Of a DNA stretch of 64,000 nt, positions 8,783 through 59,707 are shown one piece after another. This stretch comes from Thermoanaerobaculia bacterium. GTDB taxonomy: Bacteria; Acidobacteriota; Thermoanaerobaculia; UBA5066; DATFVB01. The notes under the pieces were generated by a model. It saw only the letters and a list, made by a program, of their open reading frames with translations, did not search any database and was not told the DNA's origin. The DNA lies in the NCBI GenBank assembly GCA_035260525.1, contig DATFVB010000073.1:1637-65636 (forward strand), in the 5' to 3' direction. A program made the position numbers and the translations under genes. The first letter of the stretch is position 1; every line of letters starts with the position of its first letter.

Positions 8783-8807
8783 CCGGCGAAGCCGGCACGT
8801 CTTCCGG

Positions 8808-9593: not shown

Positions 9594-9626
9594 GGCGCCC
9601 TCCTCGGATCCGGCCGCGAGATCATC

Positions 9627-10742: not shown

Positions 10743-10838
10743 TCGCGCGGAGCGTAGCACGCGGAATTTTTTCCAAAGGATCCGCGTCCTTGACGGCCCC
10801 GGGGTCGGGTGATACGTTCGGCCCGCTTCGGGGGTGGG

Positions 10839-11159
10839 ATGCCAAATCTCGGAAAAAAATTCGAATGCTTCAATTGCCGGGCGAAGTTCTACGACCTCGG
10901 CAAACCCGAAGCCGTGTGCCCGAAGTGCGGCGCCAACCAGCGCGATGCGCGCGGCGCGGACGAATCGGCCTCGGCGGCGCCGCGGCCGCGGCGGATGGCG
11001 CCGATCGTCGTCGCGCCCGACGAGGTGAGCGATTTCGAAGACCATGGCCACGAGGAAGAGGAAGAGTCGATCGACCACGCCGGGTATCCGGAGGAAGAGT
11101 TCGAAGACGAAGAGCCTCCCCTCGAGACCCACGAACGCGAGGAAGAAGAAGACTTCTGA
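10839..11159 (+). CDS. FYDLN_acid family protein (TIGR02300-like): zinc ribbon plus acidic tail
   Basis: KKFECFNCRAKFYDLGK ... CPKCG, followed by an Asp/Glu-rich C-terminus. ATG at 10839 (the ORF track extends to GTG 10809). Confidence 0.7.
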   Translation: MPNLGKKFECFNCRAKFYDLGKPEAVCPKCGANQRDARGADESASAAPRPRRMAPIVVAPDEVSDFEDHGHEEEEESIDHAGYPEEEFEDEEPPLETHEREEEEDF

Positions 11160-11634: not shown

Positions 11635-11681
11635 CGAGCGGGCGAACGACTGTCCAACGGTGCCTCTCGGCCGGACACGGT

Positions 11682-11801
11682 GAGGCGCGGTCAGACGCGA
11701 GCGAGACGGGATGCGGGCGGGGTCGGCGCGTCCCGAGCCGTACCGGGGCGTACGTCGAGGGCGCGGCGGCCCGGCCCGCGCACCTCTCCGCTCGATGTAT
11801 G
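11682..11801. repeat. GC-rich intergenic repeat element, copy A (about 120 bp)
   Basis: Runs from gaggcgcggtcagacgcgagcgagacgggatgcggg ... cgtaccggggcgtacgtcgagggcgcgg to gctcgatgtatg. It is about 85% identical to the reverse complement of 14428-14544. Confidence 0.7.
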
Positions 11802-11815
11802 ATCCGCGGCCGCCC

Positions 11816-22862: not shown

Positions 22863-23275
22863 GCCGGGATCGACAGCCGCCGCCGCAGCTTCGCCTCCAG
22901 GGCGTTCATCTCGCCGTGGTCCGTCTCGTGGTCGTATCCGAGCAGATGCAGGAGTCCGTGGAGGAGGAGCCTCTCGATCGCCGCGCGAAGAGGCACCCCG
23001 GATGCACGAGCCTGGCGCCGCGCCTCGGGGGCGGAGACGACCAGGTCGCCCAGGAACCCGTCCGCCGTTCCCGACGGAAACGAGAGCACGTCCGTCGTCC
23101 GGTCCTTTCCGCGGTAGCGGCGGTTCAGCCCGCGCATCCGGCCGTCGCCGCAGATCACGACGGAGATCTCCTCGGCCGTCCCGCCGGCGAGCGCGAGCGC
23201 GCGGTTGAGGAAACGCCGCGCCGCCGCGGACGGACATCCCGGCGCCCGGACGGTCGCCCGGAAATCCACGGTCAT
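22859..23275 (-). CDS. ybeY: rRNA maturation endoribonuclease YbeY
   Basis: HGLLHLLGYDH metal-binding motif. ATGA overlap with corC. Confidence 0.9.
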   Translation of the reverse strand: MTVDFRATVRAPGCPSAAARRFLNRALALAGGTAEEISVVICGDGRMRGLNRRYRGKDRTTDVLSFPSGTADGFLGDLVVSAPEARRQARASGVPLRAAIERLLLHGLLHLLGYDHETDHGEMNALEAKLRRRLSIPA

Positions 23276-25575: not shown

Positions 25576-25576
25576 G

Positions 25577-26542
<966 letters not shown>

Positions 26543-29369: not shown

Positions 29370-29486
29370 TGTCTTGTTTCCGGTTGTGGTCCTACAGGAT
29401 CCGAGAATTCTAAGAGGGGGGAACCGCGGGTGTCAACGCCGCCCGGGAGAGTGACCCGTCGTCGCTCCGCCGCGAAAGCCCGCGCC

Positions 29487-35527: not shown

Positions 35528-35820
35528 TCGCGACGCTCGCGGAGCTCGGATCGCGATTGCTCCCGCCGCGCGGGCGTTCCGCTCGATGGCTCGCGCACTG
35601 GCGTGCGCGGCGATCGGCGCGCTCGGCGCTGACGCGCCGGCCGCTCCGCGGCCGCGACCGGCGTCGCGCGCTGGATACCCTTCACGGAACGCTCTCCGCG
35701 CGTCGACTCTCGCGGCTCGGGCTCCCGCCCTCGACCACTTCGGCGCCCCACGGGAGCCGGGTCCCGCGGGCGTCGTTCCGGCGACATGAACTCAGGGCCG
35801 ACTTTTTCGTATCCTCGGAC

Positions 35821-36978
35821 ATGCCGATCCTGCGGGAGTGGATGGCCATGGCGCGCGAAACGGCGCGTTCGCTCCGCCGCGACGAGGTCGTCGGACTCTA
35901 CTCGCGCGAGTGGAAAGGGGCGCGCCGGCAGCTCGTCTCCGAGCACCGCGAGGAGATCGAGCGGACCCGCAACGGCGTCCGGCGGTTCTTCCGCATCGTC
36001 AACGCGGTCGCGTTCGGTCTCGTCAAGCGGCTCGCTCCGCCTCGGCGCCTCGTCTTCGCCGTCGCCGGCCTGTTCCTGGTCGGCGCGCTCGTCACGGGCC
36101 TCCAGATGGCCTCGGGGCACCGGGCCGAGGCGGAATACTGGCGGCTCGCCTCCAACACCGTCGATTTCCTCCTCGCGGCGTTCCTGCTGATGACCTTCCT
36201 CCTCGCGATGGAGCTGATCGACAAGCTGCAGTTTCGCGACGAGCTCGTGCTCGCGCGCGAGCTCCAGCGCGACCTCCTCCCGAAGGCCGTCCCGAAGGTC
36301 CCGGGATTCGAGCTCTCCGCGTACAACCGGATCGCGAACATGGTCGGCGGCGACCTCTACGACTTCACCCCGCTCCCCGACGGACGGCTCGCGGTCCTCT
36401 TCGGAGACGCCTCCGGCCACGGGATGACGGCGGGCCTCGTGATGGCGGTGGCTCACGCCGCATTCCAGACGCAGCTCGAATCGGACCCGTCGCCCGCGGC
36501 GATCGTCGGCACGTTGAACCGGGTGCTTTGCCGCACCGGCGGCCCGCGGTCGTTCTTCTCCTGCGTCTACCTGCTGCTCTCGCCCGACGGGTCGTTCTCG
36601 GCGACCGTTGCCGGGCATCCGCCGGTCCTGCTCGTCGGAGACGACGGGACGGTTCGGCGGGAGGTCGGGCGGGGCGCGTATCCGCTCGGGATCAAGACCG
36701 GCCTCGACTGGCTTCCCATTCCGGGAGCGGTCGCCCCCGGAGAGCTCCTCGTGTTCTGCTCGGACGGACTGGCGGAGGCCAGGAGCGCCGCCGGAGAGGA
36801 GTTCGGCGACGCGCGGATCGCCGCGATCGTGCGCGATCACGCGGGGCGCGCCGCGTCGGACGTCGTCGAGTCCCTCGCTTCGGAAGTCGCCCGCTTCTGC
36901 GGCCGCGAAGCTCCTGAGGACGACATCTCGATCCTCGTGATCAAGCGCGCCGCCGCCCTGCGGGCGCTTCCGGCCTGA
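35821..36978 (+). CDS. PP2C-family (SpoIIE/RsbU-like) serine phosphatase with two N-terminal TM helices
   Basis: ATG at 35821. GGDLYDF, FGDASGHG, DGL.E motifs. Confidence 0.85.
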   Translation: MPILREWMAMARETARSLRRDEVVGLYSREWKGARRQLVSEHREEIERTRNGVRRFFRIVNAVAFGLVKRLAPPRRLVFAVAGLFLVGALVTGLQMASGHRAEAEYWRLASNTVDFLLAAFLLMTFLLAMELIDKLQFRDELVLARELQRDLLPKAVPKVPGFELSAYNRIANMVGGDLYDFTPLPDGRLAVLFGDASGHGMTAGLVMAVAHAAFQTQLESDPSPAAIVGTLNRVLCRTGGPRSFFSCVYLLLSPDGSFSATVAGHPPVLLVGDDGTVRREVGRGAYPLGIKTGLDWLPIPGAVAPGELLVFCSDGLAEARSAAGEEFGDARIAAIVRDHAGRAASDVVESLASEVARFCGREAPEDDISILVIKRAAALRALPA

Positions 36979-41757: not shown

Positions 41758-41804
41758 TATCCCGGCGGGCACTCTGAACGGTCCCGCCGCAGTGACCCGC
41801 CCCG

Positions 41805-42116
41805 TCAGCGGGGCGCGGCGGGCGCGAGGGAGTCGAGCGACTCCTTCCCGAACGTCGGAAGCCAGACCTGCAGCTCGTACTGCGCGATCCCTTTCCGGAC
41901 GAACGGGTCGCCGTCGCGAATCGCGTCGAGATCCTCCCGGGGCGTCGCGTCGGAGACTCGCAGCAGCAGAGCGGCGCCGCTCCGCGGGTCGAACGGACCC
42001 GACGCGAGCACGGTCCCGCGCGCGTGGAGCACGCCGAGGTACGCGCGATGCTCGTCCAGGACCGCGAGCACCTCGTCGAGCGCGCGCCGGTAGCGAATGA
42101 TCGCGATCGCGTACAT
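41805..42116 (-). CDS. YciI-like protein (dimeric alpha/beta barrel)
   Basis: 103 aa, [10 protein letters not shown] ... GPF. Typical YciI size and motifs. Confidence 0.65.
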
Positions 42117-42149
42117 GCGGCGAGGATAGCATCGGGTACAATCGAGGAA

Positions 42150-45020
42150 ATGACCGACCCGAGCCGGGCGCCGGCGCCGGAGCGGCCCTCGACGCAAGAG
42201 ATCGTCTCCGAGCTGGAAGCCCTGCTCCAGGCGCAGAGCGATCTCGGTCAGGGCTTCTTCGTCGCCGACGGAGAGAAGCTGGTATCCGCCAACGAGGCGT
42301 TCTGCCGGCTGACCGGGTACACGGCCGATGAGCTCCTCGAGCTCCCCTCCCTTCTCGAGCTCGTGCCGGCGGAGGAGCGCCGGGGCCTGCGCCGGCAGCT
42401 CCGCCACCGGCGGGCTGCCTTCTCCTCCAAGTACACGTTCGAGACCGCGATCGTGAGCAAGTCCGGAGAACGGGTCGAGATGGAGATCGTCTTCAAGCCC
42501 TTCGGCGCGGAAGCGAGCCTCAAGCTGATCGCGGTGGTCCGCGACATCACCGCGCGCAAGAGGGACGAACAGAAGCTCCGCGAGGCGCTCTCGCTCGTGT
42601 CCGCCACGCTCGAGTCCACGGCGGACGGGCTCCTCGTCGTCGACGCCGCGGGAAAGATCGTCAGCGCGAATCGACGGTTCGTCCGGATGTGGCGGATCCC
42701 GGAGGCGGTGCTCGCGACCGGCGACGACGACGCGGCGCTGTCGGTCGTCCTCGAGCAGCTCTCCGATCCCGATGCCTTCCTGCGGAAGGTGCGGGACCTG
42801 TACTCACAGCCCGAAGCCGAGAGCTTCGACGTCCTCCATTTCCGCGATGGGCGCGTCTTCGAGCGCTACTCGATCCCCCAGCGCCTCCACGGCCGGGCGA
42901 TCGGCCGGGTCTGGAGCTTCCGCGACGTCAGCGAGCGCCACCGGGCCGAATCCGCGCTCCGCGATAGCGAGGAGCGCCACCGGGCCGTCGTGGAGACGTT
43001 GAACGAAGGCCTCCTGATCACGGACGGCGCCGACCGCATCCTCTTCTCGAACGAGCGGATGGCGGCGATGACGGGGTACGCCGTCCCGGAGATGGTCGGC
43101 CGCCCGGCGAGCGAGCTCTTCCTCGCGCCGAAGGACTGGCCGGCGATCGACGCGCGGAACCGGCGGCGGCTGCGCGGCCATTCCGAACGCTACGAGGTCG
43201 AGATGCGGCGCCAGGACGGCACGGTCTTCTTCGCCGAGGTCAACGCGATCCCGTTCCGGAACGCCGGGGGGAGCGTCGTCGGGACGCTGGGCGCGATCAC
43301 CGACATCACGGAGCGCAAGCGCGCGGAGGACTCCCTCCGCCGGTCGGCGCGCGAATACCAGGATCTCTTCGAGAGCGCCAACGACGCCATCCTCATCCTC
43401 CGTCCCGAGTCGCAGATGATCCTGGAGGCGAACCGGAAGGCCTGCGAGACGTACGGCCTGCCGCGGGACCAGATCGTCGGCATGAGCCTGAAGAACTTCA
43501 CCCGCGACGTTCCCCGGAGCGAGGAGCAGATCCGCCGGATCCTGCGCGAAGGCGCGTCGGAGAACCTCGAGACCGTTCACTTTCACCGCGACGGCACGCC
43601 GATCGACCTCCTCGTGAGCTCGTCCGTGGTCGAGTACCGGGGAGAGGGCGCGATCCTGTCGGTCTGCCGCGACATCACCGAGAGCAAGCGCGCGAAACAG
43701 GAGATCGAGCGGCTCGCCTACCACGACCCGCTCACCGACCTCCCCAACCGAGCCCGGTTCGCGGACCGGCTCGAGATCGCGCTCTCGCAGGCCCGCCGCG
43801 AGGGGTTCCCTCTCGCGATCCTCTTCCTCGACCTCGACCGCTTCAAGGTGGTCAACGACAGTCTCGGCCACAAGGTCGGCGACCTCCTCCTGCAGAAGGT
43901 GGCGCTCCGGCTCTCGCAGATGATCCGCGGCGGGGACACCCTCGCGCGGCTCGGCGGGGACGAGTTCATCATCCTGCTGTCGCGGATCGTGCAGGACGAG
44001 GACGCCGCGCGCGTCGCCCAGAACGTGCTCGCCCTCTTCCGCAAGCCATTCGTCCTCGGCGAACGGGAGCTCTTCATCACGGCGTCGATCGGGATCAGCC
44101 TCTTCCCGCGGCACGGCGAGGACCGGGAATCGCTCGTCAAGAACGCCGACATCGCGATGTACCGCGCCAAGCAGGAAGGACGCGACAACTTCCAGTTCCA
44201 CACCTCGCAGCACACGCACGACGCGATCCGGCGCCTCGCGCTCGAGACGGACCTCCGCAAGGCGCTCGACCAGGACCAGGTCGGCGTCTATTTCCAGCCC
44301 CTCGTCGACACCCGCACGGGCGCGCTCGTGGGCGCCGAGGCGCTCGCGCGGTGGGAGCATCCGCTCCGCGGTCTGCTGAGACCGTCGGAATTCATCCCGA
44401 TCGCGGAGGAGACGGGTCTCATCGTCCCGCTCGGCGCCCGGATCCTTCGTGCGGCGTGCGAGCAAATGCGCGTATGGCACGCGGCCGGCCGCCCGGAGCT
44501 GCGCCTGTCGGTGAACCTCTCCGCCCGGCAATTCCACCAGAAGGAGCTCGCCGCGCAGGTCGACCGCGTCCTGCGGGAGACCGGGCTCGCCGCCGGGATG
44601 CTCGAGCTCGAGATCACCGAGAGCATCGCGATGAAGGACGTCGCCGCGAGCGTCGTCGCGCTGCGCGCGTTGAAGGACCTCGGCGTCCGGATCACGATCG
44701 ACGACTTCGGGACCGGCTACTCCTCCCTCTCGTATCTGAAGAAGTTCCCGATCGACACGATCAAGATCGACCAGGCGTTCGTGCACGACGTCTGCTCCGA
44801 CGCCAACGACGCGGCGATCGTCCGCGCCGCGATCGTGATGGCCCACGAGCTGAAGCTCGACGTGATCGCGGAAGGCGTCGAGACCGACGACCAGGTCGCG
44901 TTCCTGCGGCGGCGCGATTGCCACGTGATGCAGGGGTATCTCTTCAGCGAGCCGGTCCCGTCCGACGCGTTCCACGCCCTGCTGCGCGCGAAGACGGTCT
45001 ACGAAGCCCCGCCCGGCTGA
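42150..45020 (+). CDS. Multi-PAS sensor diguanylate cyclase/phosphodiesterase (PAS x4, GGDEF, EAL)
   Basis: ATG at 42150 with a GAGGAAA RBS. Four PAS blocks. GGDEF in RLGGDEF, EAL in EALARWEHP. Both motifs are intact. Confidence 0.9.
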
Positions 45021-47993: not shown

Positions 47994-48112
47994 TCGAAAG
48001 CCACAAAGTCGAAAGTCAAAGGTCAGGAGGCGAGCGGCGGGGGCCGCGGACCTCGGCTTTTCAGACCGCCGTTTTCGACTTTTGGACTTTCGACTTTCGA
48101 CTTTCCCTGTCA
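47993..48112. repeat. Long imperfect inverted repeat built from GTCGAAAG (left) and CTTTCGAC (right) octamers around a GC hairpin plus T4
   Basis: Left arm gtcgaaagccacaaagtcgaaagtcaaaggtc. Central gcggcgggggccgcggacctcggctttt. Right arm ttttcgacttttggactttcgactttcgactttcc. Lies between the convergent nadE and lptE. Confidence 0.6.
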
Positions 48113-48661
48113 GAACCCCTCGAGCATGCTCGTCACGAGCGACTGCGCGAACCGGTCCGCCTCGGCGTCGATCGCGACGTTTTCGAGGTCGGAGTAGTTC
48201 GAGGCGCCCACACCGCCGCCGGCCGCGTCGTAGTTCTCGCGGAACGTGTAGGCGTCGTTCTTCCAGAGGACCTTTCCCGACGGAATCTCGGTGAACGCGA
48301 CCTTCGCGGTGATCTGGATCTGGTACCGGGTCGCGCGTCCGAGCGAGTCCGCCGCGACCGGATAGAGCGCGAAGCCGACGATCTCGCCGGAGAGCTCGGC
48401 GTCTCCGTCCCCCTCTTTCGGCGAGACCGAGAAGCGCCCGCGCGCGGCCAGCTCACGGACGACGGCCGACGAGAGCCTCTGCTCGAGGCCGACCCGCGGC
48501 GTCGAGTTCTTGAACGTCGGAAACGCGATCCGTTTGATCGTGTCGGGAAGAAGGCTGCCTCGCCCGACGAGCGCGTAGCCGCACCCGCCGGTCCCGGCCG
48601 CGAGCGCCAGCATCAACGCGGCGACCGCGCGCCTCAACGGACGATCCAAGCTCGTCCTCAC
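48110..48661 (-). CDS. lptE: LPS-assembly lipoprotein LptE
   Basis: Lipoprotein signal [18 protein letters not shown]. Classic position immediately downstream of leuS. Start is GTG 48661 (GTGA overlap) or TTG 48637. Confidence 0.65.
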
Positions 48662-51138
48662 CGGACGACGACGTTGACGAGTCGGTCGGGCACGAAGATG
48701 ACCTTCACCCTTTCCTTCCCCGCCATCCACTTCGCGATCGACTCCGTCCCCTCCGCCGCTCTCAGGACGTCGGCCTCCGCGGCGCCGCGCGGCAGCGTGA
48801 CCTGGCCGCGGAGGCGGCCGTTGACCTGCACCGCGAACTCGGCCAGGACTTCCCGGGCGAGGGCGGGATCGAACGCGGGCCAGCCGCTCCGGAGCAGGGT
48901 CTGGCGGCCTCCGAGCCGCTCGTTCAGCTCCTCGGTCAAGTGCGGTGCCACGGGATGCGCGAGGGCGACGAGGGTTCGCGCCGCCGCGTACTTCTCCGCG
49001 GCCGGCGCCGCCTCGTCGGCGACGAGATCCGCCACTTCCCGCACGTATTCCATCAGGTGGGCGACGGCGGTGTGGAACGAGAAGGCCTCGAAGTCCTCCG
49101 TCACCTTCCGGACGGCCGCGTGCCGCGCGCGGACCGCGGGAGAATCCGCCCGATCCTCCCCTCCGGCGGCGGGAGGCGCCGCCTGCTCCGTCAGCTTGTC
49201 GACCGTCGCCCGGAGCCGCGCGAGGAATCGTTCCGCGCCCGCGATTCCCTGGTCGCTCCACTCCGCCTCGAACTCCGCCGGCCCGAGGAAAAGCACGTAC
49301 GTCCGGACGACGTCCGCGCCCCGGGCGGCGATCAGCGGGTCGAGGGAGACCGCGTTCCCGCGCGATTTCGACATCTTCTCGATCCGTCCCGTCGGGCTGA
49401 TTCGCGTGATCATCCCCTGGTTGAAGAGGGCCGCGAAGGGCTCGTCCACGTCGACGAGGCCGAGCTTTCTCATCACCCGCGCGAAGAAGCGCGCGTAGAG
49501 GAGGTGAAGGATCGCGTGCTCGATCCCGCCGACGTACTGCGTGACCGGCGTCCAGCGGCGCGCGATCGCGGGGTCGAACGGCGCGCGCGCGTCGTGCGGG
49601 TCGAGATACCGCGCGTAGTACCAGGACGAGTCGACGAACGTGTCCATCGTGTCGGTCTCGCGGCGGGCGGGACCGCCGCATCGCGGGCAGGACGTCCGCA
49701 CGAAGGCCTCGACCTTCTCCAGCGGGTTGCCTCCCTTCCCCGTGAACGGGGCGTCGGGCGGAAGGACGACGGGGAGATCTGCGTCGGGCACGGGCACCCA
49801 GCCGTCCTTCTCGCAGCGGATCATCGGGATCGGCGTCCCCCAGTAGCGCTGCCGGGAGATCAGCCAGTCGCGGATCCGGTAGGTCACCCGGCCGCGTCCC
49901 CACCCGTTCCTCTCGAGGGTCGCGATCGCCTTGCCGACGGCCCCGGGGCCGTTCGGGGTGCCGTCCCACTCCCCCGACCGGTAGAGGAAGCCCGCGTCGG
50001 GAGACGCGGCCGTCATCGCCGCGGGATCGAGCTCCCCCCCGTCGGTGCGATAGACGGGGCGGATCGGAAGGCCGAACTTGCGCGCGAACTCGAAGTCGCG
50101 CTGGTCGTGGGCCGGGACCGCCATGATCGCGCCGGTCCCGTAGTCGGGGAGGACGAAGTTCGCGAGCCAGATGGGAAGGTTCTCGCCGTTGACGGGATTG
50201 ACCGCGAACGACCCCGTCGGGAGGCCTTCCTTCTCCGCCCCCTCGGCTTCCCGGGTGATCCGGGACTCCCGGCGGACTTTCGCGGCGAACTCCTCGATGC
50301 GCCCCGGGTCGCCGCTCGACGCCGCGAGCCGCGAGACGAGAGGATGCTCCGGGGCGAGCGCGAGGAACGTCGCGCCGTACAGCGTGTCGGGGCGCGTCGT
50401 GAACACGGTGAGCGTCTCCCCGAGCGCGGGGACGAAAAAGTTCACCTCCGCGCCGACGCTGCGTCCGATCCAGTTCCGCTGCATCGTCAGGACCTTCTCG
50501 GGCCACTTCCCCTCGAGGGCGTCGATCCCGGCGAGGAGCGACTCGGCCTCGTCGGTGATCTTGAAGAACCACTGCTCGAGCTCGCGCTGGACGACGGGGC
50601 TCTTGCAGCGGTCGCAGATCCCTCCTTCGGCCTGCTCGTTGGCGAGCACCGTCTCGCAGGAAGGACACCAGTTCACGGGAGCCTTCTTGCGGACGGCGAG
50701 ACCCCGTTCCCACATCCGGAGGAAGAACCACTGGTTCCAGCGGTAGTACTCCGGTTCGCACGTCGCGATCTCCTTGCTCCAGTCGTAGAGAACCCCCCAC
50801 GACCGGAACTGCTCCTTCATCGCGGCGATGTTGGCGAGCGTCGACTGCCGCGGCGGAATGCCGACCTGGATCGCGTAGTTCTCCGCGGGCAGGCCGAAGG
50901 CGTCCCATCCCATGGGGCAGAAGACCGTCTGTCCGCGCTGTCGCCAGAAGCGGTGCAGCGCGTCCGTCAGGAAGTAGGTCCGCGCGTGCCCGACGTGGAG
51001 GCGGTCGCCCGACGGATAGGGAAGCATGACGAGCAGGTAGACGCCCGAGACCGACGGATCGGCGGTGTCGACGAAAGCGATTCGCTCGTCCTCCCAACGC
51101 CGGCGCCATTTGACCTCGATCTCTCGCGTGTCGGACAT
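48658..51138 (-). CDS. leuS: Leucine--tRNA ligase
   Basis: HVGH, KMSKS and CP1 editing domain motifs. Confidence 0.95.
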
Positions 51139-51221
51139 GAGCGAGCCAATCTACGCGAGGAGACGCGCCGATTCAAGGCGTCGCGGGCGCGGCGATGCGT
51201 CGCGCCGATCGCGTCCGCGCG

Positions 51222-52262
51222 TCAGGGCGGGCCGCCGTCGGCGTTCAGGAGCCGCACGATCGCCTCCGGGATCTCGACGAGAGGGCGGACTTCGTCGACC
51301 GCGCCGGACAGCGCCGCCTCGCGCGGCATCCCGAACACGACCGCCGATTCTTCGGATTCGGCGATCGCCTTCCCCCCGACGCGGCGAATCTCGAGGACGC
51401 CGTCGCGTCCGTCGCTTCCCATGCCGGTGAGGACGATCGCGATCGCCCGCGGACCCGCCGCCGCCGCCGCGCTGCGGAACAGCCGGTCCACGGAGGGCGA
51501 ATACAGGTCGTTGCCGGCGCGCTCCGCCACCCGCGCGCGATACGCGGGGGCCCCGCCGACGACGTCGAGGTGCGCGCCCCCCGGCGCCACGTAGGCGCGC
51601 CCCGGCTGCAGGAGCTGGCCGTCGCGGGCCTCGAGGACCGGAAACCCCGCGACCCGCGAGAGCCGTTCGGCGAAGAGCCCGGTGAAGCCCGCGGGCATGT
51701 GCTGCGCGACGACGATCGGACAGCCGAGCACCGGCAGCGCGGGCAGGAGCGAGGAGAGCGCCGCCGGCCCTCCGGTCGACGCGCCGATGACGACGATCGC
51801 GCCGGGCCGGGCCGACCGGGGCGCCGCGCCGGGCGGCGGCACAACGGCCGGGACCGCGGACTCTCCGGGGTATCGCGCGGCCGCGGCGGCGCGGACCTTC
51901 TCGACGAGGGTCGACTCGAGCCGCTCGTACTCGAGCGACGCGTGCGCCTGCGGCTTCAGGACGAAATCCAGGGCGCCGAGGTCGAGCGCCCGGAAGACGT
52001 CGTCGCGCCCCTGCCGCGACGACACGACGATCGCCGGGATCCGCAGGTTCGCCGCGAGCCATCGCAGCACCGAGAACCCGTCGAGCCCCGGCATCTCGAG
52101 GTCGAGCGTGATCACGTCCGGCCGGTGCGCCACCGCGAGCCGGATCGCCTCCTCCCCGTTCACCGCGGTCGCCACGACCTTGAGCTCCGGGTCCTTCTGG
52201 ACCATCCGGGAAATCGTCACGCGCGAAAACGCGCTGTCGTCGACGACGAGGACGCGGATCAT
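51222..52262 (-). CDS. cheB: Chemotaxis response regulator protein-glutamate methylesterase CheB
   Basis: REC domain MIRVLVVDDS ... D. Methylesterase GASTGGP. ATGA overlap with cheR. Confidence 0.9.
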   Translation of the reverse strand: MIRVLVVDDSAFSRVTISRMVQKDPELKVVATAVNGEEAIRLAVAHRPDVITLDLEMPGLDGFSVLRWLAANLRIPAIVVSSRQGRDDVFRALDLGALDFVLKPQAHASLEYERLESTLVEKVRAAAAARYPGESAVPAVVPPPGAAPRSARPGAIVVIGASTGGPAALSSLLPALPVLGCPIVVAQHMPAGFTGLFAERLSRVAGFPVLEARDGQLLQPGRAYVAPGGAHLDVVGGAPAYRARVAERAGNDLYSPSVDRLFRSAAAAAGPRAIAIVLTGMGSDGRDGVLEIRRVGGKAIAESEESAVVFGMPREAALSGAVDEVRPLVEIPEAIVRLLNADGGPP

Positions 52263-53095
52263 TTCCGGTACGCCAGGTCGTGCGGCAGCTGGCGCAGCCG
52301 GAAGGCGGTCGAGAACGCGACGAGTGACTCGACGCGGCCGAGGAAGAGGTGTCCTCCGGGGAGCAGCCGGTCGTACAGCGACGCGACGACGGAGCGCTGG
52401 GCCCGGTCCTCGAGGTAGATCAGCACGTTTCGGCAGAAGATCACGTGAAAGCGCGGGAGCGCGGCGAGCCTCGACGCCTCGACGAGGTTGACGCGTCCGA
52501 ACGCGACGCGCCGGCGGACCTCTTCCCTCAGCCGGAACCGGCCGGCCCCCTCGGATTCGAAGAAGCGGGCCCGGCGTTCGTCGGAAGTCTGGCGGAACGC
52601 GTTCTCGCGGAAGACGGCGACGCGCGCCCGCGCGAGACTCGCCGACGACAGATCGCTCCCGAAGATTTCCACCGAGTGTCGGTCGAAGAATCCCTTCTCC
52701 TCGAGAAGCATCGCGATCGTGTAAGGCTCCTCTCCGGACGCGCACCCGGCGCTCCAGATCCGGAGCGGGCCGGGGTCCGCCTCGCGATCCCATTCCGGGA
52801 GCAGGTCTTCGGAGAAGGCGGCGAGCTGCTCGTTTTCGCGGAAGAAGTAGGTCTCCGGATTCGTGATCCGGTCGAGCAGCGCGTCGAACTCGAGCTCCTC
52901 GCCGGGACCGTAGCGCAACCGATAGAAGTACGCGCGGGGACTTTCGAGCCGGAGCTCCTCGATGCGGTGGCGGACGCGCGACTCGAGCAGGAACCGGTTC
53001 GACTCGGTGAAGTCGATCCCGCTCCGGGCCCGGATCATGTCGGCGAAGATCCGGAACAGGTCGTTCGGAAACGGCGCGCCGCCGTTGTCGGTCAC
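52259..53095 (-). CDS. cheR: Chemotaxis protein methyltransferase CheR
   Basis: GTG at 53095 (GTGA overlap). SAM-binding IWSAGCASGEEPYT. Confidence 0.9.
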   Translation of the reverse strand: MTDNGGAPFPNDLFRIFADMIRARSGIDFTESNRFLLESRVRHRIEELRLESPRAYFYRLRYGPGEELEFDALLDRITNPETYFFRENEQLAAFSEDLLPEWDREADPGPLRIWSAGCASGEEPYTIAMLLEEKGFFDRHSVEIFGSDLSSASLARARVAVFRENAFRQTSDERRARFFESEGAGRFRLREEVRRRVAFGRVNLVEASRLAALPRFHVIFCRNVLIYLEDRAQRSVVASLYDRLLPGGHLFLGRVESLVAFSTAFRLRQLPHDLAYRK

Positions 53096-55320
53096 GGCGC
53101 CGCGTCGGCCCGGAGCACCTCCGACAGGACGGCGGCGCGGCGCGGGTCGGCCTCCCTCCACGCGCGCTCGACCGCGCCCGGAAACCTCCGCCGGAACCGC
53201 AGGAGCGTCGCCGCCAGGTCCTCGGCGATCGCCTCGCGCGAGAGCGCCTCGACGACGGTGCCGACGTCCGACTCCACCGCGATCGCCTCGAGAGCCGTGA
53301 GCGCGGAGCGCGCGACGAGGTCGTCCGGGTCCTCGAGGAGGGACCGTCGGAGGATCGGCCGGCGGTCGTAGCGCGCCCGCCGGCCCATCGCCTCGAGGGC
53401 GGTGGCCCGGAGACGCCAGTCGGGGTCCGAGACGCGCCGCTCGATCGCCTTCTCCGCCTCGAACTCGCGGGAATCGGCCGCCGCCGAGAGCGCGGCCTGC
53501 CGGACCTCCGGATCGGCGTCGTCGAGCGACGCCGCGATCGCCTCCCACGCGGCGGGTCCCCCGATCGCGCCGATGGCCTCGAGCGCCGCGATTCTTTCCG
53601 GCGGCTCGCCGCGCGCCGCGATATTCCGGAGCCGCCGCGACGCTTCGTCGCCGCCGAGCGAGGCGAGACAGCGGCAGGCGGCGGCCCTTACCCAGAGATC
53701 GTCGTCGTCGAGCGACGCGAAGATCGCCTCCCGGTGCGACGCGGCCCTCCCCGACACGCAGAGGGCCTGCACGGCAACCTGCCGCACGTGCGCGCTCTCG
53801 TCGGCGAGCGCGTGCTCGAAGACGGCCGCCATCGACGGGTCGCTCTCCTTCCCCGCGATCGCGACCGCGCGGCCCCGCACGACCGCGTCCTCGTCCCGGC
53901 TCGCCGAGAGGAGCTGCGCCCGAAAGTCCTCTCCCCCGAGCCCGGCCAGCAGCGCCAGGGCATTCGCGCGGGTGAGCCCGTCGCGCGACGCGAGCGCGCG
54001 GACGAGGCGCTTCCGGAGCGGCTCGCGGGCGGCCGCGTCGTTCTTCGCCATCGACGCGAGCGCCTCGGCCGCGGCCGCGTCGACGCCCGCGTCCCCGTCG
54101 CCGAGGTGCGCGACGAGGTAGTCGATCGCGCGCGAGTCGCCGATCTTTCCGAGGAGCTCGACCGCGTCCCGCCTCACGGGCGGAGAATCGTGCTCGAGCA
54201 CGGCGAGCACCGAAAAGAGCATCGCGCGCGACGGATGCCGGCCGAGAAGGCGAATCGCGAGCTCGACCTTCTGCTCGTCTCCCGCGGGAGAGAGGAGCGC
54301 GACGAGCGCGGGGCCCGCCGCCTCCCCGAAATCCTCGAGAGCGCGCTCGGCCGCCTCCGCCGAGTCGCGCGAGAGCTCCGCGACCAGGATCGGGAGCGAC
54401 TCCGGGTCGGCAATCCAGCCGAGCGCCCGCAGGAGATCGGCCTTGCGGTCGCGCCGCTCGGTCTTCTTCAGGGCGAGCGCGAAGGCGGCCGCCGCGCCGG
54501 CAGGGGCGTTCTCGCGGAACTTCCGCCGGAGATAGTCGCGCTCCCGGCGCGCGAGAATCGCCGGCCGGGGCGCCTCGTCGAGGGCGACGAGCGCGCGCAG
54601 GAGCGGGAAATCGGGGATCGAGGAGCTCGCGAGCCGTCCCGCCAGCAGATCGATCGACCCGAACCCTCCGATCGCGCCCGCCGCCTCGAGCACCGCCTTC
54701 TTCAGAGCGGGATTCTGGTCGCAGGCGACGATCGCCGGCAGCGCCTCGACCGCGCGAAGGCGGCCGAGCGTCTCGATCGCGTGGTAATGGAGCCAGGCAT
54801 TGTCGCCGGCGAGCACGCGCATCAGCGTCGGGACCGCCTCGGGCCGCTTCATCTTTCCGAGCGCCACGATGGCGGCCGAGGCCACGTTGACGTCCTCGGA
54901 CGAAACGAGGGAGACGAGCGCGGCCGCGCTTTCCTCGGCCGGGATGTCGCCGAGGATCGTCGCGAGCGCGATGCGCCCGTCGGCGTCCGCGACCCGGCCG
55001 AGCTCGAACAGGAGGTACGGCAGCGCGCGGATGCCGAAGGCGCGAAGCGCCTCCGCCGCCGCGTTTCGCATTCCGGCGTTGCCCTGATCGTGAAGGGCCG
55101 GGATCAGGGCCTGGACGACGCCCTCCGTCGGGTTCGCCTCGAGCCCTTCGATCGCCGCCTTGCGGACGCGCCAGTCGGGGTCCCCCGCGAGCTCGACGAG
55201 CAGGTCGATCGCGTCCGGATCCGACCGCTCCATGAGGATTCGCGCGACTTTCTGCCGGACGTCCGAGCTCTCGTCCCGGGAATCGCGGCGCAGGGCCGCG
55301 ATCAGCTCATCGTCGGCCAT
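53092..55320 (-). CDS. HEAT-repeat (PBS-lyase-like) protein encoded within the che operon
   Basis: More than 15 repeats of about 30 aa, each ending in a V/A-R-xxA-AxALG pattern. Confidence 0.8.
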   Translation of the reverse strand: MADDELIAALRRDSRDESSDVRQKVARILMERSDPDAIDLLVELAGDPDWRVRKAAIEGLEANPTEGVVQALIPALHDQGNAGMRNAAAEALRAFGIRALPYLLFELGRVADADGRIALATILGDIPAEESAAALVSLVSSEDVNVASAAIVALGKMKRPEAVPTLMRVLAGDNAWLHYHAIETLGRLRAVEALPAIVACDQNPALKKAVLEAAGAIGGFGSIDLLAGRLASSSIPDFPLLRALVALDEAPRPAILARRERDYLRRKFRENAPAGAAAAFALALKKTERRDRKADLLRALGWIADPESLPILVAELSRDSAEAAERALEDFGEAAGPALVALLSPAGDEQKVELAIRLLGRHPSRAMLFSVLAVLEHDSPPVRRDAVELLGKIGDSRAIDYLVAHLGDGDAGVDAAAAEALASMAKNDAAAREPLRKRLVRALASRDGLTRANALALLAGLGGEDFRAQLLSASRDEDAVVRGRAVAIAGKESDPSMAAVFEHALADESAHVRQVAVQALCVSGRAASHREAIFASLDDDDLWVRAAACRCLASLGGDEASRRLRNIAARGEPPERIAALEAIGAIGGPAAWEAIAASLDDADPEVRQAALSAAADSREFEAEKAIERRVSDPDWRLRATALEAMGRRARYDRRPILRRSLLEDPDDLVARSALTALEAIAVESDVGTVVEALSREAIAEDLAATLLRFRRRFPGAVERAWREADPRRAAVLSEVLRADAAP

Positions 55321-55666
55321 GCGCCTCCCGGTAATCGGCGGGCCCCGGCGCTTCCGTTCGGGAGACGGCGCGGGGTCGAGTCTCGGACACGGCGAAGAAC
55401 GGCGCCGGGCCTCCGCCGACGAGAATGAAATTGACGGCGCCCGCGGCGTTTCCTCGAACCTCGTAGGCCTTTCCGCGCCAGAAGGCCACGCCGTGCGGCG
55501 AGCCGGGGAGCGGCGACACCGGCAGCGCGGGGGTGATCTCGAGGAGATCGGCGGCCGGCGCGAAGTACTCGGCCCCCTCCGAACCGAAGACGATGCCGAG
55601 GTCGTCCGGGGTCCGCCGGGGCGGTTGCCGGAAATAGCGCAGGATCGCCTCCGCGGCGGCGGTCAC
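55307..55666 (-). CDS. cheW: Short CheW-like domain protein (about 119 aa, possibly truncated or degenerate)
   Basis: IVFGSEGAEYFAPAADLLEITPALPVSPLPGSPHGVAFWRGKAYEV resembles the first CheW subdomain. It overlaps the HEAT gene start by 14 nt. Confidence 0.45.
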   Translation of the reverse strand: MTAAAEAILRYFRQPPRRTPDDLGIVFGSEGAEYFAPAADLLEITPALPVSPLPGSPHGVAFWRGKAYEVRGNAAGAVNFILVGGGPAPFFAVSETRPRAVSRTEAPGPADYREAHGRR

Positions 55667-57549
55667 GCGGCGCCCCCGCCCGCCGTCGCGGGGCGCGGCC
55701 CGCCGGCCGCCCGGACGATCCGTTTCGGGTCGAGAACCAGGATCGCGTCATCGCCGCGTCCCTGCGACGCGCCGATCAGGAACGGCGCCGCGTCGCCGGT
55801 CACGACCGGCCGGACGACGAGCATCTCCTGGCGGAGGACGCGGGCGACCGAGATCGCGCTGCGATCGGACAGGAAGACGGTCACGCGACCGGGTCCGGCG
55901 GCGGGTTCCGTCCCGGCGACAACGCGCGAGAGCGGGATCGCGGCGTCGCCGGCGCTCTCCCGCGCGACGCGCGCGATCGCCGCGAGCGGGAACGCCCAGG
56001 CGCGATCCTGTTCGAGGACGACGAGCGCGTCGAAGACCGCCTGCGCGATCGCGATCTCGATCTCGAACCGCGTTCCGCGTCCGGGCGTCGAGAGGACCCG
56101 GACCTCGCCGTGGCGCGCCGCGACCCGCTCGGCGACGAGGTCGAGGCCCACTCCGCGCCCGGAGATCTCCGAGACGGCGGACGCGGTCGAAAATCCCGGG
56201 CGGAAGAGGAAAGCGCGGGCTTCCTCCTCGGTCGGCTCGGCTTCCGGCCGGATCCATCCGAGCTCTCGAGCCCGGCGCACGACGGCCAGGGTGTCGATGC
56301 CGCGCCCGTCGTCGGCGAGCGAGATCAGGAGCCGCGAGTTCCGGGAGCGCGCCATGAGCGTCACCGTGCCGCTCTCCGGCTTGCCCGCCGCGCGGCGTTC
56401 CCCGGGGGACTCGATCCCGTGGTCGACCGCGTTGCGCACGATGTGGAGGAGCGGATCGGCGAGATCGTCCGCGAGCCCACGGTCGATCTCGGACTCCCCT
56501 CCGACGATCCGGAACTCCGCCTTCTTGCCGGAGCTTTCGAGGATCCGCTTCGCCGCCCGGCTCAGCCGGTCCCCGAGCCGCGAGATCGGAACCGTGCGGA
56601 TCCCCGCCGCCTGCCGGGCGAGCCGCTCGAGCGAACCGTCGAGGCGCAGCCGGAGACGCGCCGCGATCACCCTCTGCGAAGGGGGAAGGCCCTCCTCCAG
56701 GCGCACCATCTCGCCCGAAAGCTTCTGGAAGCGCGCCCGCGCTTCGTCCGCCTCCGCGAGGAGCGCTTCCAGCCGGGAGGCCTCGAGGCGGAGGGTGCGG
56801 ACCGCCGCCCGCTCCGTCTCTTCGGCCGCGACGCGCGGCTGCTCCGGCTCGCGGCTGACCCGCCGGAGCCCTGCGTCCTCCGGGAGACCCTCGGGCTCCC
56901 GTTCCCGGGCGACGAGGAGCTGGACCGCGACTTGCTCCGCGGAGAACCCGGCGACCTGCGGCAGGGTCGCGATCCACTCCCCGCCGTCGTTCAAGCGCGC
57001 GCCGAGATCCTTCAACGCCGCCTCGAATGCGTCGAGGGGAAACGCGACGTCGATCGTCCAGATCGCCGTGCCGGCCGCCCGATGCGCGCGCAGCCGGCTC
57101 TCCTCGTACTCGGAGAGGCACGACACCGTCCGTTCCGGCAGATCGAGCTCGGCGGACAGCGGAGCCGCGGGCGGGGTCGACGCCGGTGCGCGCGCCTCCG
57201 AGAGGAGTCCGATCGCCTCCTCCGCCGGAAAGGCCGCGTCGTCTCCCGAGGCCGCGGCGTCGATCGCCGCCTCGAACCGCAGGAAGAACCGATCGAGCGC
57301 CTCGCGCACGCGATCGGTCCACGTCACCCGCGACAGGCGGATCGCGTCGAGGAGGCTCTCCGCCTCGTGCAGCGCGCCCGCGAACCGCGAATACCCCTTC
57401 AGCCCGGCGAGCCCCTTGAGCGAATGTACCGCGCGGAAGAGCTCGTTGATCTCTCCGGCCCGGGGCGGCCGCGCGAGCGAGAGCACGCTGCGGACGGTTT
57501 CGAGCCGCTCGGCCGCCTCGGCGGAGAAATCGACCGCGTCGCCCTTCAT
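55663..57549 (-). CDS. cheA: Chemotaxis histidine kinase CheA
   Basis: HPt with HSLKG. Dimerisation and HATPase domains (GRGVGLD). C-terminal CheW-like domain. Confidence 0.9.
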   Translation of the reverse strand: MKGDAVDFSAEAAERLETVRSVLSLARPPRAGEINELFRAVHSLKGLAGLKGYSRFAGALHEAESLLDAIRLSRVTWTDRVREALDRFFLRFEAAIDAAASGDDAAFPAEEAIGLLSEARAPASTPPAAPLSAELDLPERTVSCLSEYEESRLRAHRAAGTAIWTIDVAFPLDAFEAALKDLGARLNDGGEWIATLPQVAGFSAEQVAVQLLVAREREPEGLPEDAGLRRVSREPEQPRVAAEETERAAVRTLRLEASRLEALLAEADEARARFQKLSGEMVRLEEGLPPSQRVIAARLRLRLDGSLERLARQAAGIRTVPISRLGDRLSRAAKRILESSGKKAEFRIVGGESEIDRGLADDLADPLLHIVRNAVDHGIESPGERRAAGKPESGTVTLMARSRNSRLLISLADDGRGIDTLAVVRRARELGWIRPEAEPTEEEARAFLFRPGFSTASAVSEISGRGVGLDLVAERVAARHGEVRVLSTPGRGTRFEIEIAIAQAVFDALVVLEQDRAWAFPLAAIARVARESAGDAAIPLSRVVAGTEPAAGPGRVTVFLSDRSAISVARVLRQEMLVVRPVVTGDAAPFLIGASQGRGDDAILVLDPKRIVRAAGGPRPATAGGGAA

Positions 57550-57932
57550 GTCAGCGAGGGGGGTGTAGCGAGGAGTCGGTCGACCGCCGAGCAGATCTGC
57601 TCGGCCGAAAAGGGCTTGCGGACGTAATCCTGCGATCCGAGCGCCATCGCGCGCTCGACGTCGGCCGCCGCGACCTCGGTGGACACGACGAGAATCGGGA
57701 TCGTCCGGTATTGCGGGTGGTTCTTCAGGAAGCCGATGAGCTCGAGGCCGTTGATGTCGGGCATGTTCACGTCGGTGACGATCGCGTCGAAAAGGTGCCG
57801 GGGCAGCAGCCGCAGGGCTTCGAATCCCGAGGACGCTTCGAAGACCTCCCGCCGATCCGGATCGTCGAGCGCCGCGACGATCATCGACCGCGTCGCGTCG
57901 GAATCCTCCACGACGAGGATGCGCTTGATCAC
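57546..57932 (-). CDS. cheY: CheY-like response regulator
   Basis: VVEDS..., D in IVTDVNMP, T/K residues. Receiver domain only. Confidence 0.9.
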   Translation of the reverse strand: MIKRILVVEDSDATRSMIVAALDDPDRREVFEASSGFEALRLLPRHLFDAIVTDVNMPDINGLELIGFLKNHPQYRTIPILVVSTEVAAADVERAMALGSQDYVRKPFSAEQICSAVDRLLATPPSLT

Positions 57933-57975: not shown

Positions 57976-58686
57976 TCATCGCGGTTCCACCGGAGCCGGC
58001 CGCGTTTCCCCGGAAACGACGGCGAGCCGAAGGTCCCCGGGACGGGTCCAGGAGCGCCGAGCGAACGCGACGTATCGGGCGTCGACCCCTCCGCCCGCCG
58101 CGAGCGGGTCCGCGAACGTCCATCCCCGATCCGGATAGAAGACCTCGACCCAGCGGTGGTAGACGCCGGAGAGCTCCGGAGCGTAGCCGGGGGTCCCCGG
58201 GTCGGTCACGAGGACGCCCTGGATCGTGGCCGCCGGAATTCCGGCGCGCCGCAGGAGGTCGACCGCGAGCTCGGCGAACCCGACGCAGTACGCGCGCCGG
58301 GAGGCGAACACCGCCGCGGGCTCCTGTGGCCGGGAACGGTCGGAATCGTACGCGACCGAGCGTCGCACCCACGCGAGCACCGCGCCGGCCGCGCCGGCCT
58401 GGAGGCGCTGGCCCGCGACGAGCGACCGCGCGAGCCGGTCGCGGTCGGGCGCCGGGGCGGGCGCGGCGCCGACGTCTTCCGGCGCCCGCGGCGCGCCGCT
58501 CGGCCGGCGAGCCGGAGACGCCCGCACGACCAGACGCAGGCCCGATCGCTCGGGGAAGGCCTCCAGCGAGTAGCCGTTCACGTCGAGCTGGTCGAAGAGC
58601 GCGGCGTCGCGGCCGCGGGCGAAGTAGACCGCGGTCGCGCCCGACGACTCGGCCGCCGCGAGGAGAGCGATGGCGAACGCCGCCAT
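57976..58686 (-). CDS. Transglutaminase-like cysteine peptidase superfamily protein (secreted)
   Basis: YCVGFAEL contains the Cys. YHRWVEVF contains the His. GWTFADP contains the Asp. Confidence 0.65.
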   Translation of the reverse strand: MAAFAIALLAAAESSGATAVYFARGRDAALFDQLDVNGYSLEAFPERSGLRLVVRASPARRPSGAPRAPEDVGAAPAPAPDRDRLARSLVAGQRLQAGAAGAVLAWVRRSVAYDSDRSRPQEPAAVFASRRAYCVGFAELAVDLLRRAGIPAATIQGVLVTDPGTPGYAPELSGVYHRWVEVFYPDRGWTFADPLAAGGGVDARYVAFARRSWTRPGDLRLAVVSGETRPAPVEPR

Positions 58687-58697
58687 CCGACCGCCCG

Positions 58698-59117
58698 TCA
58701 CGGCTCCCCGGTCTCCGCGGGCGATTTCAGGACGCCGTCGAGGATCCCGTTGATGAACTGCGACGACCTCGGGGTCGAGAAACGCTTCGCGATCTCCAGA
58801 GCCTCGTCGATGACGACGGGGGCGGGCGTGTCGGGCTCGTGGCGAATCTCGTAGAGCGCCATCCGGAGGATGTTCCGGTCGACGGCCGGCATCCGCTCGA
58901 TGCGCCAGTTGTCCGCCTGTCGGGTGATGAGGTCGTCGATCTCCGGCCGGTGCTCGAGAGTTCCGATGACGAGCCGCTTGGCGTAGTCCCGGGTCGAGTC
59001 TGCCGCGTGCCGCCACTCCTGGAAATGGTGGAACATCTCCTCGGGGGCGGCGCCCGTCAGGTCGTTCTCGAAGAGCATCTGGAGCGCGAGCTCCCGGGCG
59101 CGGCGTCGCGACCCCAT
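58698..59117 (-). CDS. nusB: Transcription antitermination factor NusB
   Basis: RRARELALQMLF ... FINGILD. Confidence 0.9.
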   Translation of the reverse strand: MGSRRRARELALQMLFENDLTGAAPEEMFHHFQEWRHAADSTRDYAKRLVIGTLEHRPEIDDLITRQADNWRIERMPAVDRNILRMALYEIRHEPDTPAPVVIDEALEIAKRFSTPRSSQFINGILDGVLKSPAETGEP

Positions 59118-59644
59118 CAGCGGACCTCCGCCCGTTTTCGCGCCCCCGGCGCTCCGGCGCGGAGGGGCCGCGGCGCTTGCCGCGCGCGTTTCCTCAGCCT
59201 CGCCATCTCGATGGCCGCCTCCGCCGCTTCGCGGCCGGCGTTTCCGGCTCGCCCCCCCGCGCGATCCATCGCCTGCGCGTGATCGTCGCAGGTGAGGACG
59301 CCGAACGCGATCGGGACGTCCTGAGCGGCGTTCAACTGCGCGAGCGCGGACGCGACCGAGCGGGAGAGCACGTCGAAGTGCGGGGTGTCGCCGCGAATCA
59401 GGCACCCGAGGGAGACGACGGCCGAACGCGCCCGGCGGACTTCCCAGCGGCACGCGGAAACGAGCTCGAACGAACCGGGCACGCGGACGACCGCGACCTC
59501 GCGGGCCCCCGCGGCCCGGAGCACCGAGAGGGCCCCGTCGAGGAGACGCTCGGTCACGTCCGCGTTCCAGCGCGCCGCAACGACCGCGAAGCTCAATCCC
59601 TTCGCGTCCAGGGGTTCGCGGTCTGGCAATGACCCTTTTCGCAT
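59117..59644 (-). CDS. ribH: 6,7-dimethyl-8-ribityllumazine synthase
   Basis: VPGSFEL, GCLIRGDTPHFD. Classic ribH-nusB arrangement. Confidence 0.9.
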   Translation of the reverse strand: MRKGSLPDREPLDAKGLSFAVVAARWNADVTERLLDGALSVLRAAGAREVAVVRVPGSFELVSACRWEVRRARSAVVSLGCLIRGDTPHFDVLSRSVASALAQLNAAQDVPIAFGVLTCDDHAQAMDRAGGRAGNAGREAAEAAIEMARLRKRARQAPRPLRAGAPGARKRAEVR

Positions 59645-59707
59645 CCGGTGCGGGAGGATTGTAGCAGGGAGGAGACGGGCGCGACAGCGGCCGCGGCGCT
59701 TAGCCAC

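Follow-up and report, generated by a model that had tools for sequence, protein, structure and literature searches.

Positions 1,637 to 65,636 of contig DATFVB010000073.1, a 64,000-bp stretch that we refer to as the window, come from an uncultured soil member of the Acidobacteriota, class Thermoanaerobaculia, and have a G+C content of ~72%. The window contains a six-gene chemosensory operon on the minus strand (cheY, cheA, a short cheW designated mini-CheW, a gene for a HEAT-repeat protein, cheR and cheB; Table 1). This operon is a reduced variant of a HEAT-containing, Che8-type system that lacks a gene for a methyl-accepting chemotaxis protein (MCP), is conserved in the Thermoanaerobaculia, and is syntenic with operons of the Myxococcota. 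The original prediction had described the architecture as like that of Che7 and its HEAT protein Cpc7, but the Che7 cluster comes with a dedicated receptor, Mcp7 (PMC3945109), whereas the window encodes no MCP. The closest described system is instead myxobacterial Che8, because of the shared gene order, the link to nusB, and the absence of an MCP.

The six genes had been placed at the coordinates given in Table 1, and Pfam matches, a per-frame plot of G+C at third codon positions (GC3), and the independent gene calls on an identical public metagenome contig (ENA ERZ27237463 k141_494071, of which JGI has shorter copies) agree with this placement. The GC3 plot shows clean minus-strand frame switches at each gene boundary. 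Each gene overlaps the next at its end, by 4, 4, 14, 4, and 4 nt in order from cheY to cheB, and given these overlaps all six genes are predicted to be translationally coupled. Each gene is under purifying selection, with ratios of nonsynonymous to synonymous substitution rates (dN/dS) of 0.09–0.11 for CheY, 0.24 for CheA, 0.25–0.41 for mini-CheW (the operon maximum), 0.14–0.17 for CheR, and 0.23–0.24 for CheB. Among the large proteins of the operon HEAT is the most constrained, with a dN/dS of 0.14 that is comparable to that of the neighboring leuS (0.11–0.13); the transglutaminase-like gene upstream of cheY has values of 0.20–0.25.

No MCP is encoded in or next to the operon, as had been proposed from the sequence at the outset. 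A tblastn search of the 64-kb window with a Tsr signaling-domain probe found none, and neither did phmmer searches of all window open reading frames (ORFs) of at least 70 aa using three MCP seeds, namely the Tsr probe and two MCPs from locus L010, a deltaproteobacterial metagenome-assembled genome (MAG). The same probes recovered both L010 MCPs and a divergent MCP in locus L012, providing a positive control. Pfam searches of 10 further large window ORFs also revealed no MCP. A receptor gene just outside the window was looked for as well, and the flanking sequences of L001 and L006 contain none; past the right end of the window there are pfkB, lpxA, fabZ, lpxD, skp, and bamA. There is no MCP within 10 kb at about 90 related Acidobacteriota loci, and 80 loci from a scan of GTDB genomes, 1.44 Mb in all, contain zero.

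Relationship to Che8 and to other che operons

Che8 clusters and the window operon have no mcp gene, share the order CheY-CheA-CheW-(CheW)-HEAT-CheR-CheB, and lie directly downstream of ribH-nusB. In M. xanthus, Che8 comprises CheY8b (124 aa), CheW8b (188 aa), CheW8a (174 aa), CheR8 (290 aa), CheB8 (345 aa), and CheY8a (126 aa) (Moine et al., PMC3945109), and the gene sizes at the Corallococcus locus L096 (Table 1) match this table (MXAN_4751–4759). The Che8 tables include no Mcp8 and leave tags 4754–4755, between cheW8a and cheR8, unassigned (PMC3945109). From the gene sizes and this gap we infer that Che8 carries a homologous HEAT gene at MXAN_4754/4755. Che8 of C. coralloides is likewise described without an associated MCP (PMC6194562), and both Corallococcus L096 and Archangium L011 have ribH-nusB followed by a small gene and cheY, and no MCP.

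The Che8-type HEAT protein P0214 aligns with the window HEAT protein at 30% identity and 86% query coverage (E 7e-26), and a second, P0224, is homologous over only 24% of the query (E 2e-24). Identities between the window and Archangium proteins are 31–37% for CheA, 29–30% for HEAT, 39% for CheR, and 45% for CheB; in neighbor-joining trees the Archangium sequences group with deltaproteobacterial types and not specifically with the window clade. The window operon differs from the Che8 type in having one truncated CheW of 119 aa rather than two full CheWs of ~175–188 aa, a CheA of 628 aa with P3 and P5 silent in Pfam rather than one of 752–862 aa with all domains recognized, and a HEAT protein of 742 aa rather than ~660 aa. 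It also has a transglutaminase-like gene upstream in place of a 163-aa M17_N-like gene, and no second CheY after cheB. Literature searches on HEAT proteins in Che8, on MXAN_4754/4755, and on chemotaxis in Thermoanaerobaculia found nothing relevant, and a paper on the che clusters of Geobacter does not mention HEAT proteins (PMC2577667).

Two characterized systems have HEAT-repeat proteins encoded with che genes. Che7 resembles the window in that the HEAT-repeat protein Cpc7 is encoded in its che cluster. We take the Cpc7 gene to lie after cheB7, where it adjoins a desaturase gene, and not in the interval from cheW to cheR. Compared by description, Cpc7 is smaller than the window protein, with 27 helices. 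Che7 further differs in that Mcp7 is a cytoplasmic receptor of 821 aa and CheW7 is full-length (PMC3945109). The Che7 pathway has a non-motility output, and Cpc7 binds the single-domain CheY7 (PMC11514114, citing Darnell et al. 2014). In Halobacterium salinarum, the HEAT_PBS protein OE2401F binds CheD and the CheY-binding CheF, and is needed for signaling (PMC2666748). OE2401F has HEAT repeats of the PBS type and is encoded among che genes, like the window protein, but it is archaeal, acts between CheY and the archaellum, adjoins cheF rather than cheR and cheB, and belongs to a system with receptors; the established likeness is one of repeat type.

Related operons occur in other Acidobacteriota. 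A CheA search recovered a tight clade (P0001–P0039; 53–100% identical) with only Hpt and HATPase_c on record, and beyond it P0040 at 38% identity and canonical CheAs near 33%. The shared gene order, exemplified by P0004 and P0034, is bamA, skp, lpxD, fabZ, lpxA ... ribH, nusB, transglutaminase, cheY, cheA, small CheW, HEAT, cheR, cheB, leuS, lptE. The same operon and context are present on the 3.8-Mb chromosome encoding P0004 (L006/L013; CheA 72% identical) and on the P0034 contig (CheA 55% identical), and the P0040 locus (L008; CheA 38% identical) has the same che order on a 6.7-kb contig without flanking context. Loci L093, L094, and L095, with CheAs 32–36% identical, also have the operon within a ribH-nusB-transglutaminase ... 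leuS-lptE context, and there P5 and the CheWs (124, 103, and 151 aa, respectively) are recognizable by Pfam. Gene lengths are fixed in the orthologues, at 118–120 aa for mini-CheW, 740–742 aa for HEAT, and 278 aa for CheR. In a neighbor-joining tree of CheA, the window clade together with P0040 joins a group of CheAs that includes L093–L095 (the 'x-group'; 96.5% bootstrap). This tree and the operons and CheW lengths of L093–L095 indicate that the window operon represents a fast-evolving branch of a widely conserved seven-gene unit with a progressively shrinking CheW.

Scanning GTDB with an alignment of the HEAT proteins identified 80 loci, all in Acidobacteriota MAGs, five of which are of the window type and ~75 of a second type ('clade 2'; Table 1). 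Clade 2 operons resemble that of the window in lying downstream of ribH-nusB, in having no MCP, and in the triad of HEAT (~742 aa), CheR, and CheB, with identities of 35–37% for HEAT over its full length, 50–53% for CheB, and 52–56% for CheY. They differ in their canonical CheA and in additional genes for a PatA_N response regulator, an AAA_22 ATPase, a ~250-aa CheW, a Zn-ribbon response regulator, a GAF protein, another CheY, and a second HEAT protein of ~290 aa; they have no transglutaminase gene, and leuS is not adjacent. We found no description of the clade 2 HEAT-che operon in the searchable literature. A tree of HEAT proteins places the window clade with clade 2 (100% bootstrap), in conflict with the CheA tree, and bit scores of CheY, CheR, and CheB are also higher to clade 2 (L009/L047). 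The conflict may reflect either module exchange, giving the operon a mosaic history, or a rate artefact.

Outside the phylum there are weaker HEAT homologues (29–33% identity), again encoded just before cheR-cheB. In L010, HEAT-cheR-cheB is accompanied by two MCP genes in the cluster. L012 has a PAS_4-HEAT fusion (10001–12664) immediately upstream of cheR-cheB, and between cheW and the fusion gene is a divergent 680-aa MCP (7956–9998) with no Pfam match on record, which in phmmer matches an L010 MCP at 1e-69 and the Tsr probe at 1e-15. N-terminal PAS_4 domains fused to a HEAT solenoid also define a family of ~890–930-aa proteins (P0195, P0202, P0203, P0212, and P0213), and the fusion suggests that certain members of the HEAT family may carry their own sensor domain. 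HEAT-che operons directly downstream of ribH-nusB occur in three Thermoanaerobaculia operon types and in Myxococcota (L006, L009, L011, and L093–L096), a cross-phylum synteny of a signaling operon with housekeeping genes; the distance to leuS is 5.5 kb in Corallococcus, and in Thermoanaerobaculia leuS is the adjacent gene.

The CheA-CheW core and adaptation enzymes

The mini-CheW has a Pfam CheW match that is below threshold (E=0.069; 13.2 bits against a gathering cutoff of 23.5) and spans residues 24–70 only, although three orthologues at 60–61% identity have a precomputed PF01584 match. An AlphaFold2 model of mini-CheW (predicted local distance difference test score, pLDDT, 86.4) has eight strands, and its best 18 PDB matches in Foldseek are all CheW or CheA-P5, with probabilities of 0.99–1.00 and coverage of ~95 of the ~140 CheW columns; hhalign against canonical CheW gives a probability of 87% over 57 columns. 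In an alignment with the CheWs of related operons and E. coli CheW, mini-CheW matches over the first strand, the 'VQEI' and 'NLRG' motifs, and the strands after them, at which point it ends. It thus lacks the C-terminal third of canonical CheW, ~50 residues, the two-subdomain β-barrel is incomplete, and the earlier description of a truncated CheW is borne out.

All 24 mini-CheW orthologues are 118–120 aa long and there are 30 invariant columns. Residues E43, I44, R64, and G65 are invariant among the 24 and align with E38/I39 and R62/G63 of E. coli CheW, which we take to lie in the receptor-binding region of canonical CheW. A profile search with the mini-CheW family yielded only nine clusters at E<=1e-10, and did not extend to canonical CheW. 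That the 119-aa ORF is an artefact of the high G+C content, or that it belongs to the HEAT frame (open to 55662) as an N-terminal extension, is ruled out on the same three grounds: a GC3 of 0.8–0.95 in its frame, the 24 orthologues, and the confident model of a CheW fold. The orthologous operons contain a series of CheW lengths of 151, 124, 119, and 103 aa (Table 1), corresponding to a progressive C-terminal or internal reduction of the fold.

The CheA has no Pfam match to CheW or H-kinase_dim even at E<=10. In the AlphaFold2 model (pLDDT 86.7) P3 is a two-helix hairpin and P5 is all-β, and the C-terminal CheW domain proposed originally is therefore present in the predicted structure while silent in Pfam. 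Foldseek aligns the model with the P3-P4-P5 chains 3ja6_C, 8c5v_A, 6s1k_A, and 1b3q_A over 386–394 columns, the whole chain length, and P4 matches CheA P4 structures with TM scores up to 0.95 (normalized to the target). The phospho-histidine H42, within an HSLKG motif, is invariant across the alignment of CheA homologues (A3); P3 and P5 are the least conserved domains. The adaptation enzymes are readily recognized, with Pfam scores of 167 bits (CheR) and 201 bits (CheB_methylest), and NCBIfam matches of CheB to a subfamily model (350.9 bits against a cutoff of 293) and of CheR (E 5e-36); the CheB translation contains GASTGG, QHMP, and GMGSDG motifs. The operon thus shares CheA P1–P5, the CheW fold, and CheY, CheR, and CheB with the canonical core of E. 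coli and Thermotoga maritima, and departs from it in having no local MCP, a CheW without the last ~50 residues, P3 and P5 diverged past Pfam recognition, and an extra HEAT protein of 742 aa.

Possible partners of the HEAT-repeat protein

The HEAT protein matches HEAT_2 in nine stretches (237 bits) and HEAT_PBS (E 5e-14), and its best relatives in a PDB profile search are alphaRep designs, CpcE, MTH187, and YibA; judged by sequence, it is a generic PBS-type HEAT solenoid. Its gene shares 14 nt with mini-CheW and 4 nt with cheR, and orthologues occupy the same position at every related locus examined. At all 78 loci with enough downstream sequence cheR is directly 3′ of the HEAT gene, and cheB is next after cheR in at least 49 of 71 loci, using a strict positional filter that undercounts. 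There are no promoter-like sites at the HEAT gene, and terminator-like sites are no more frequent than in shuffled controls. The overlaps, conserved position, lack of promoter or terminator signals of its own, and purifying selection make the gene an integral part of the operon, as first thought, and not an insertion. An unrelated HEAT gene that landed in the operon with its own promoter and terminator is hardly credible: the overlaps with both neighbors and the promoter and terminator scan rule it out, its GC content and GC3 match those of its neighbors, and the position is conserved in >90 loci and two phyla.

We favor, at about an even chance, a functional, streamlined Che8-type operon with receptors in trans and the HEAT protein as a partner of phosphorylated CheY (CheY~P). 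The kinase core would consist of CheA (P1–P5) and a minimal CheW, with CheA phosphorylating both the single-domain CheY and CheB at its receiver domain. The HEAT solenoid would be a dedicated protein-interaction platform of the pathway, expressed in stoichiometric coupling to CheW and CheR, and by analogy with CheY7-Cpc7 could be a docking partner or effector controlled by CheY~P; the output would be something other than motility. Input would come from MCPs whose genes lie elsewhere in the genome, in line with the proposal for Che8 (PMC3945109), and CheR and CheB would adapt the system by modifying these methyl-accepting receptors acting in trans. The assignment of orphan MCPs to Che7 and Che8 by phylogeny (PMC3945109) provides a precedent for receptors in trans, and Cpc7-CheY7 (PMC11514114) and OE2401F (PMC2666748) provide precedents for a HEAT protein as a CheY partner or pathway link. 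Several observations weigh on the other side. Provision of receptors in trans is an assumption; the likeness to Cpc7 and OE2401F is by description and at the level of generic HEAT repeats; the invariable HEAT-cheR adjacency (78/78) favors a link to the adaptation enzymes at least as much as to CheY; and with mini-CheW lacking its C-terminal strands and P3 and P5 being the least conserved, the core may not assemble canonically with receptors.

That adjacency is the main attraction of a different role, in which the HEAT solenoid is not a CheY~P target but tethers or organizes CheR and CheB, bringing them to the signaling complex or to a receptor encoded at a distance in the manner of the C-terminal pentapeptide found on some MCPs. 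The HEAT-CheR-CheB triad is retained in operons that otherwise differ (the window, L009, L010, L012, and L011/L096), the 4-nt overlap of HEAT and cheR recurs in L093–L095, and dN/dS is nearly equal for HEAT and CheR. Adjacency of genes is not interaction, though, and no case of CheR or CheB being tethered by a HEAT protein is known to us. For che-linked HEAT proteins, the only partners with experimental support are CheY7 (PMC11514114) and CheD/CheF (PMC2666748), and we regard the tethering role as rather unlikely.

The position of the HEAT gene between cheW and cheR, and coupled to both, is a frequent place for mcp in che operons, raising the idea that the HEAT protein replaces the MCP altogether, binding mini-CheW and P5, controlling CheA, and serving as the substrate of CheR and CheB in a pathway without any MCP. 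A substrate must exist since CheR and CheB are kept under purifying selection, none of the other operon proteins is a plausible sensor or substrate, the conserved mini-CheW face implies a helical partner, and about 90 Thermoanaerobaculia loci have no MCP within 10 kb. However, these loci are syntenic copies of one region and are silent on the rest of the genome, and HEAT genes coexist with MCP genes in L010 and L012, so the protein is not a general substitute for an MCP. In an alignment of 138 HEAT orthologues, E and Q alternate in no column and the MCP methylation consensus [ASTG][ASTG]xx[EQ][EQ]xx[ASTG][ASTG] is absent, and the conserved Glu residues occupy the standard HEAT-repeat position; an MCP-like methyl acceptor is therefore unsupported. 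We consider such a surrogate receptor improbable. Marginally less probable again is a HEAT protein acting as a regulatory scaffold that would use the conserved CheW face to bind mini-CheW and P5, would gate CheA, and would be methylated by CheR and demethylated by CheB.

The truncated CheW, the invisibility of P3 and P5 to Pfam, and a mini-CheW dN/dS that is the highest in the operon could also be taken as erosion, with the operon a chemotaxis cluster in decay after loss of its receptor. We think this very improbable, as all genes are intact and overlapping with dN/dS well under 1 for each, orthologue lengths are fixed, mini-CheW has its 30 invariant columns, both AlphaFold2 models are confident, and the architecture is kept down to 32–38% CheA identity.

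Gene neighborhood and implications

The operon is set among housekeeping and envelope genes, with no flagellar or pilus genes nearby, and this setting makes the non-motility or 'alternative cellular function' role that was suggested initially a plausible one. The transglutaminase-like gene begins 11 nt past the end of nusB and ends 43 nt before cheY, and is probably co-transcribed with the che operon; it is located between nusB and cheY in L001, L006, and L093–L095, and in several of these overlaps cheY by 4 nt. Mechanical ORF calling starts this gene at GTG 59016 (57976–59016; 346 aa), running into nusB, but the GC3 frame switch near 58700 and the public gene calls favor ATG 58686 (236 aa). 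The protein is probably exported, because the ATG 58686 start gives a signal-peptide-like N-terminus (MAAFAIALLAAAESSGA). Spurious long ORFs of up to 999 aa (48110–51109, minus strand; 48940–51594 and 55160–57568, plus strand) overlie real genes in other frames or on the opposite strand, as expected at 72% G+C, and ORF length alone is therefore no evidence for a gene here. Other signaling genes in the window, none of which is an MCP, code for a multi-PAS GGDEF-EAL protein of 1074 aa (41796–45020, plus strand), a Ser/Thr kinase with TPR (27288–29432, minus strand), a 7TMR-HD receptor-phosphohydrolase (23272–25830, minus strand), and a SpoIIE-type phosphatase (35509–36978, plus strand).

Table 1. 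Features of the che operon, its neighbors, and compared loci. Positions are those of the window unless another locus or CheA residues are indicated.
Feature	Location	Strand	Description
cheY	57546-57932	minus	128 aa, single-domain response regulator; Pfam Response_reg E 3e-25
cheA	55663-57549	minus	628 aa histidine kinase; Pfam Hpt E 2e-09, HATPase_c E 6e-15
CheA P1 (Hpt), modeled	residues 8-120
CheA P2-like α/β, modeled	residues 139-230
CheA P3, modeled	residues 257-318
CheA P4, modeled	residues 319-500
CheA P5 (CheW-like), modeled	residues 504-615
mini-CheW	55307-55666	minus	119 aa coupling protein; CheW fold in AlphaFold2 model/Foldseek
HEAT/PBS-type repeat solenoid	53092-55320	minus	742 aa; Pfam HEAT_2 E 1e-71
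cheR	52259-53095	minus	278 aa protein-glutamate O-methyltransferase; Pfam CheR E 5e-49, CheR_N E 6e-11
cheB	51222-52262	minus	346 aa receiver-domain methylesterase; Pfam CheB_methylest E 1e-59, Response_reg E 1e-21
Transglutaminase-like gene	57976-58686	minus	236 aa; Pfam Transglut_core E 4e-17; conserved upstream neighbor
ribH-nusB	58698-59707		directly upstream of the transglutaminase-like gene and che operon
leuS	48658-51138		begins 83 nt past cheB
CheW of L093	11995-12369		length series
CheW of L094	11992-12303		length series
CheW of L095	12064-12519		length series
Clade 2 operon, L009	1164-18756		ribH, nusB, PatA_N-response regulator, cheY, canonical cheA, AAA_22, CheW (~250 aa), Zn-ribbon-response regulator, HEAT (~742 aa), cheR, cheB, GAF, cheY, small HEAT (~290 aa)
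Clade 2, further loci	L017-L092		~75 more; widespread in Thermoanaerobaculia MAGs
Corallococcus locus, L096			ribH, nusB, 163-aa gene, response regulator (124), CheA (752), CheW (187), CheW (175), HEAT (663), CheR (290), CheB (347), response regulator (128); leuS 5.5 kb downstream

Chemosensory pathways are defined by receptor methylation, and this operon keeps CheR and CheB beside a HEAT gene in a cluster without a receptor. The comparative data therefore lead to three hypotheses for a family annotated simply as 'HEAT repeat protein', namely that its members are CheY~P effectors, scaffolds of CheR and CheB, or non-MCP methyl acceptors. The series of CheW lengths, together with the Pfam-silent P3 and P5, could reveal what the CheA-CheW core can do without. 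The same module is present in the uncharacterized Che8 system of the genetically tractable myxobacteria. Should receptors in trans be confirmed and the HEAT protein prove to be simply a CheY target, the pathway would be an ordinary variant of the alternative cellular function type; if the HEAT protein is instead a methylated regulatory scaffold, this would be the first chemosensory system built on a non-MCP methyl-accepting protein, extending from Acidobacteriota to myxobacterial Che8.

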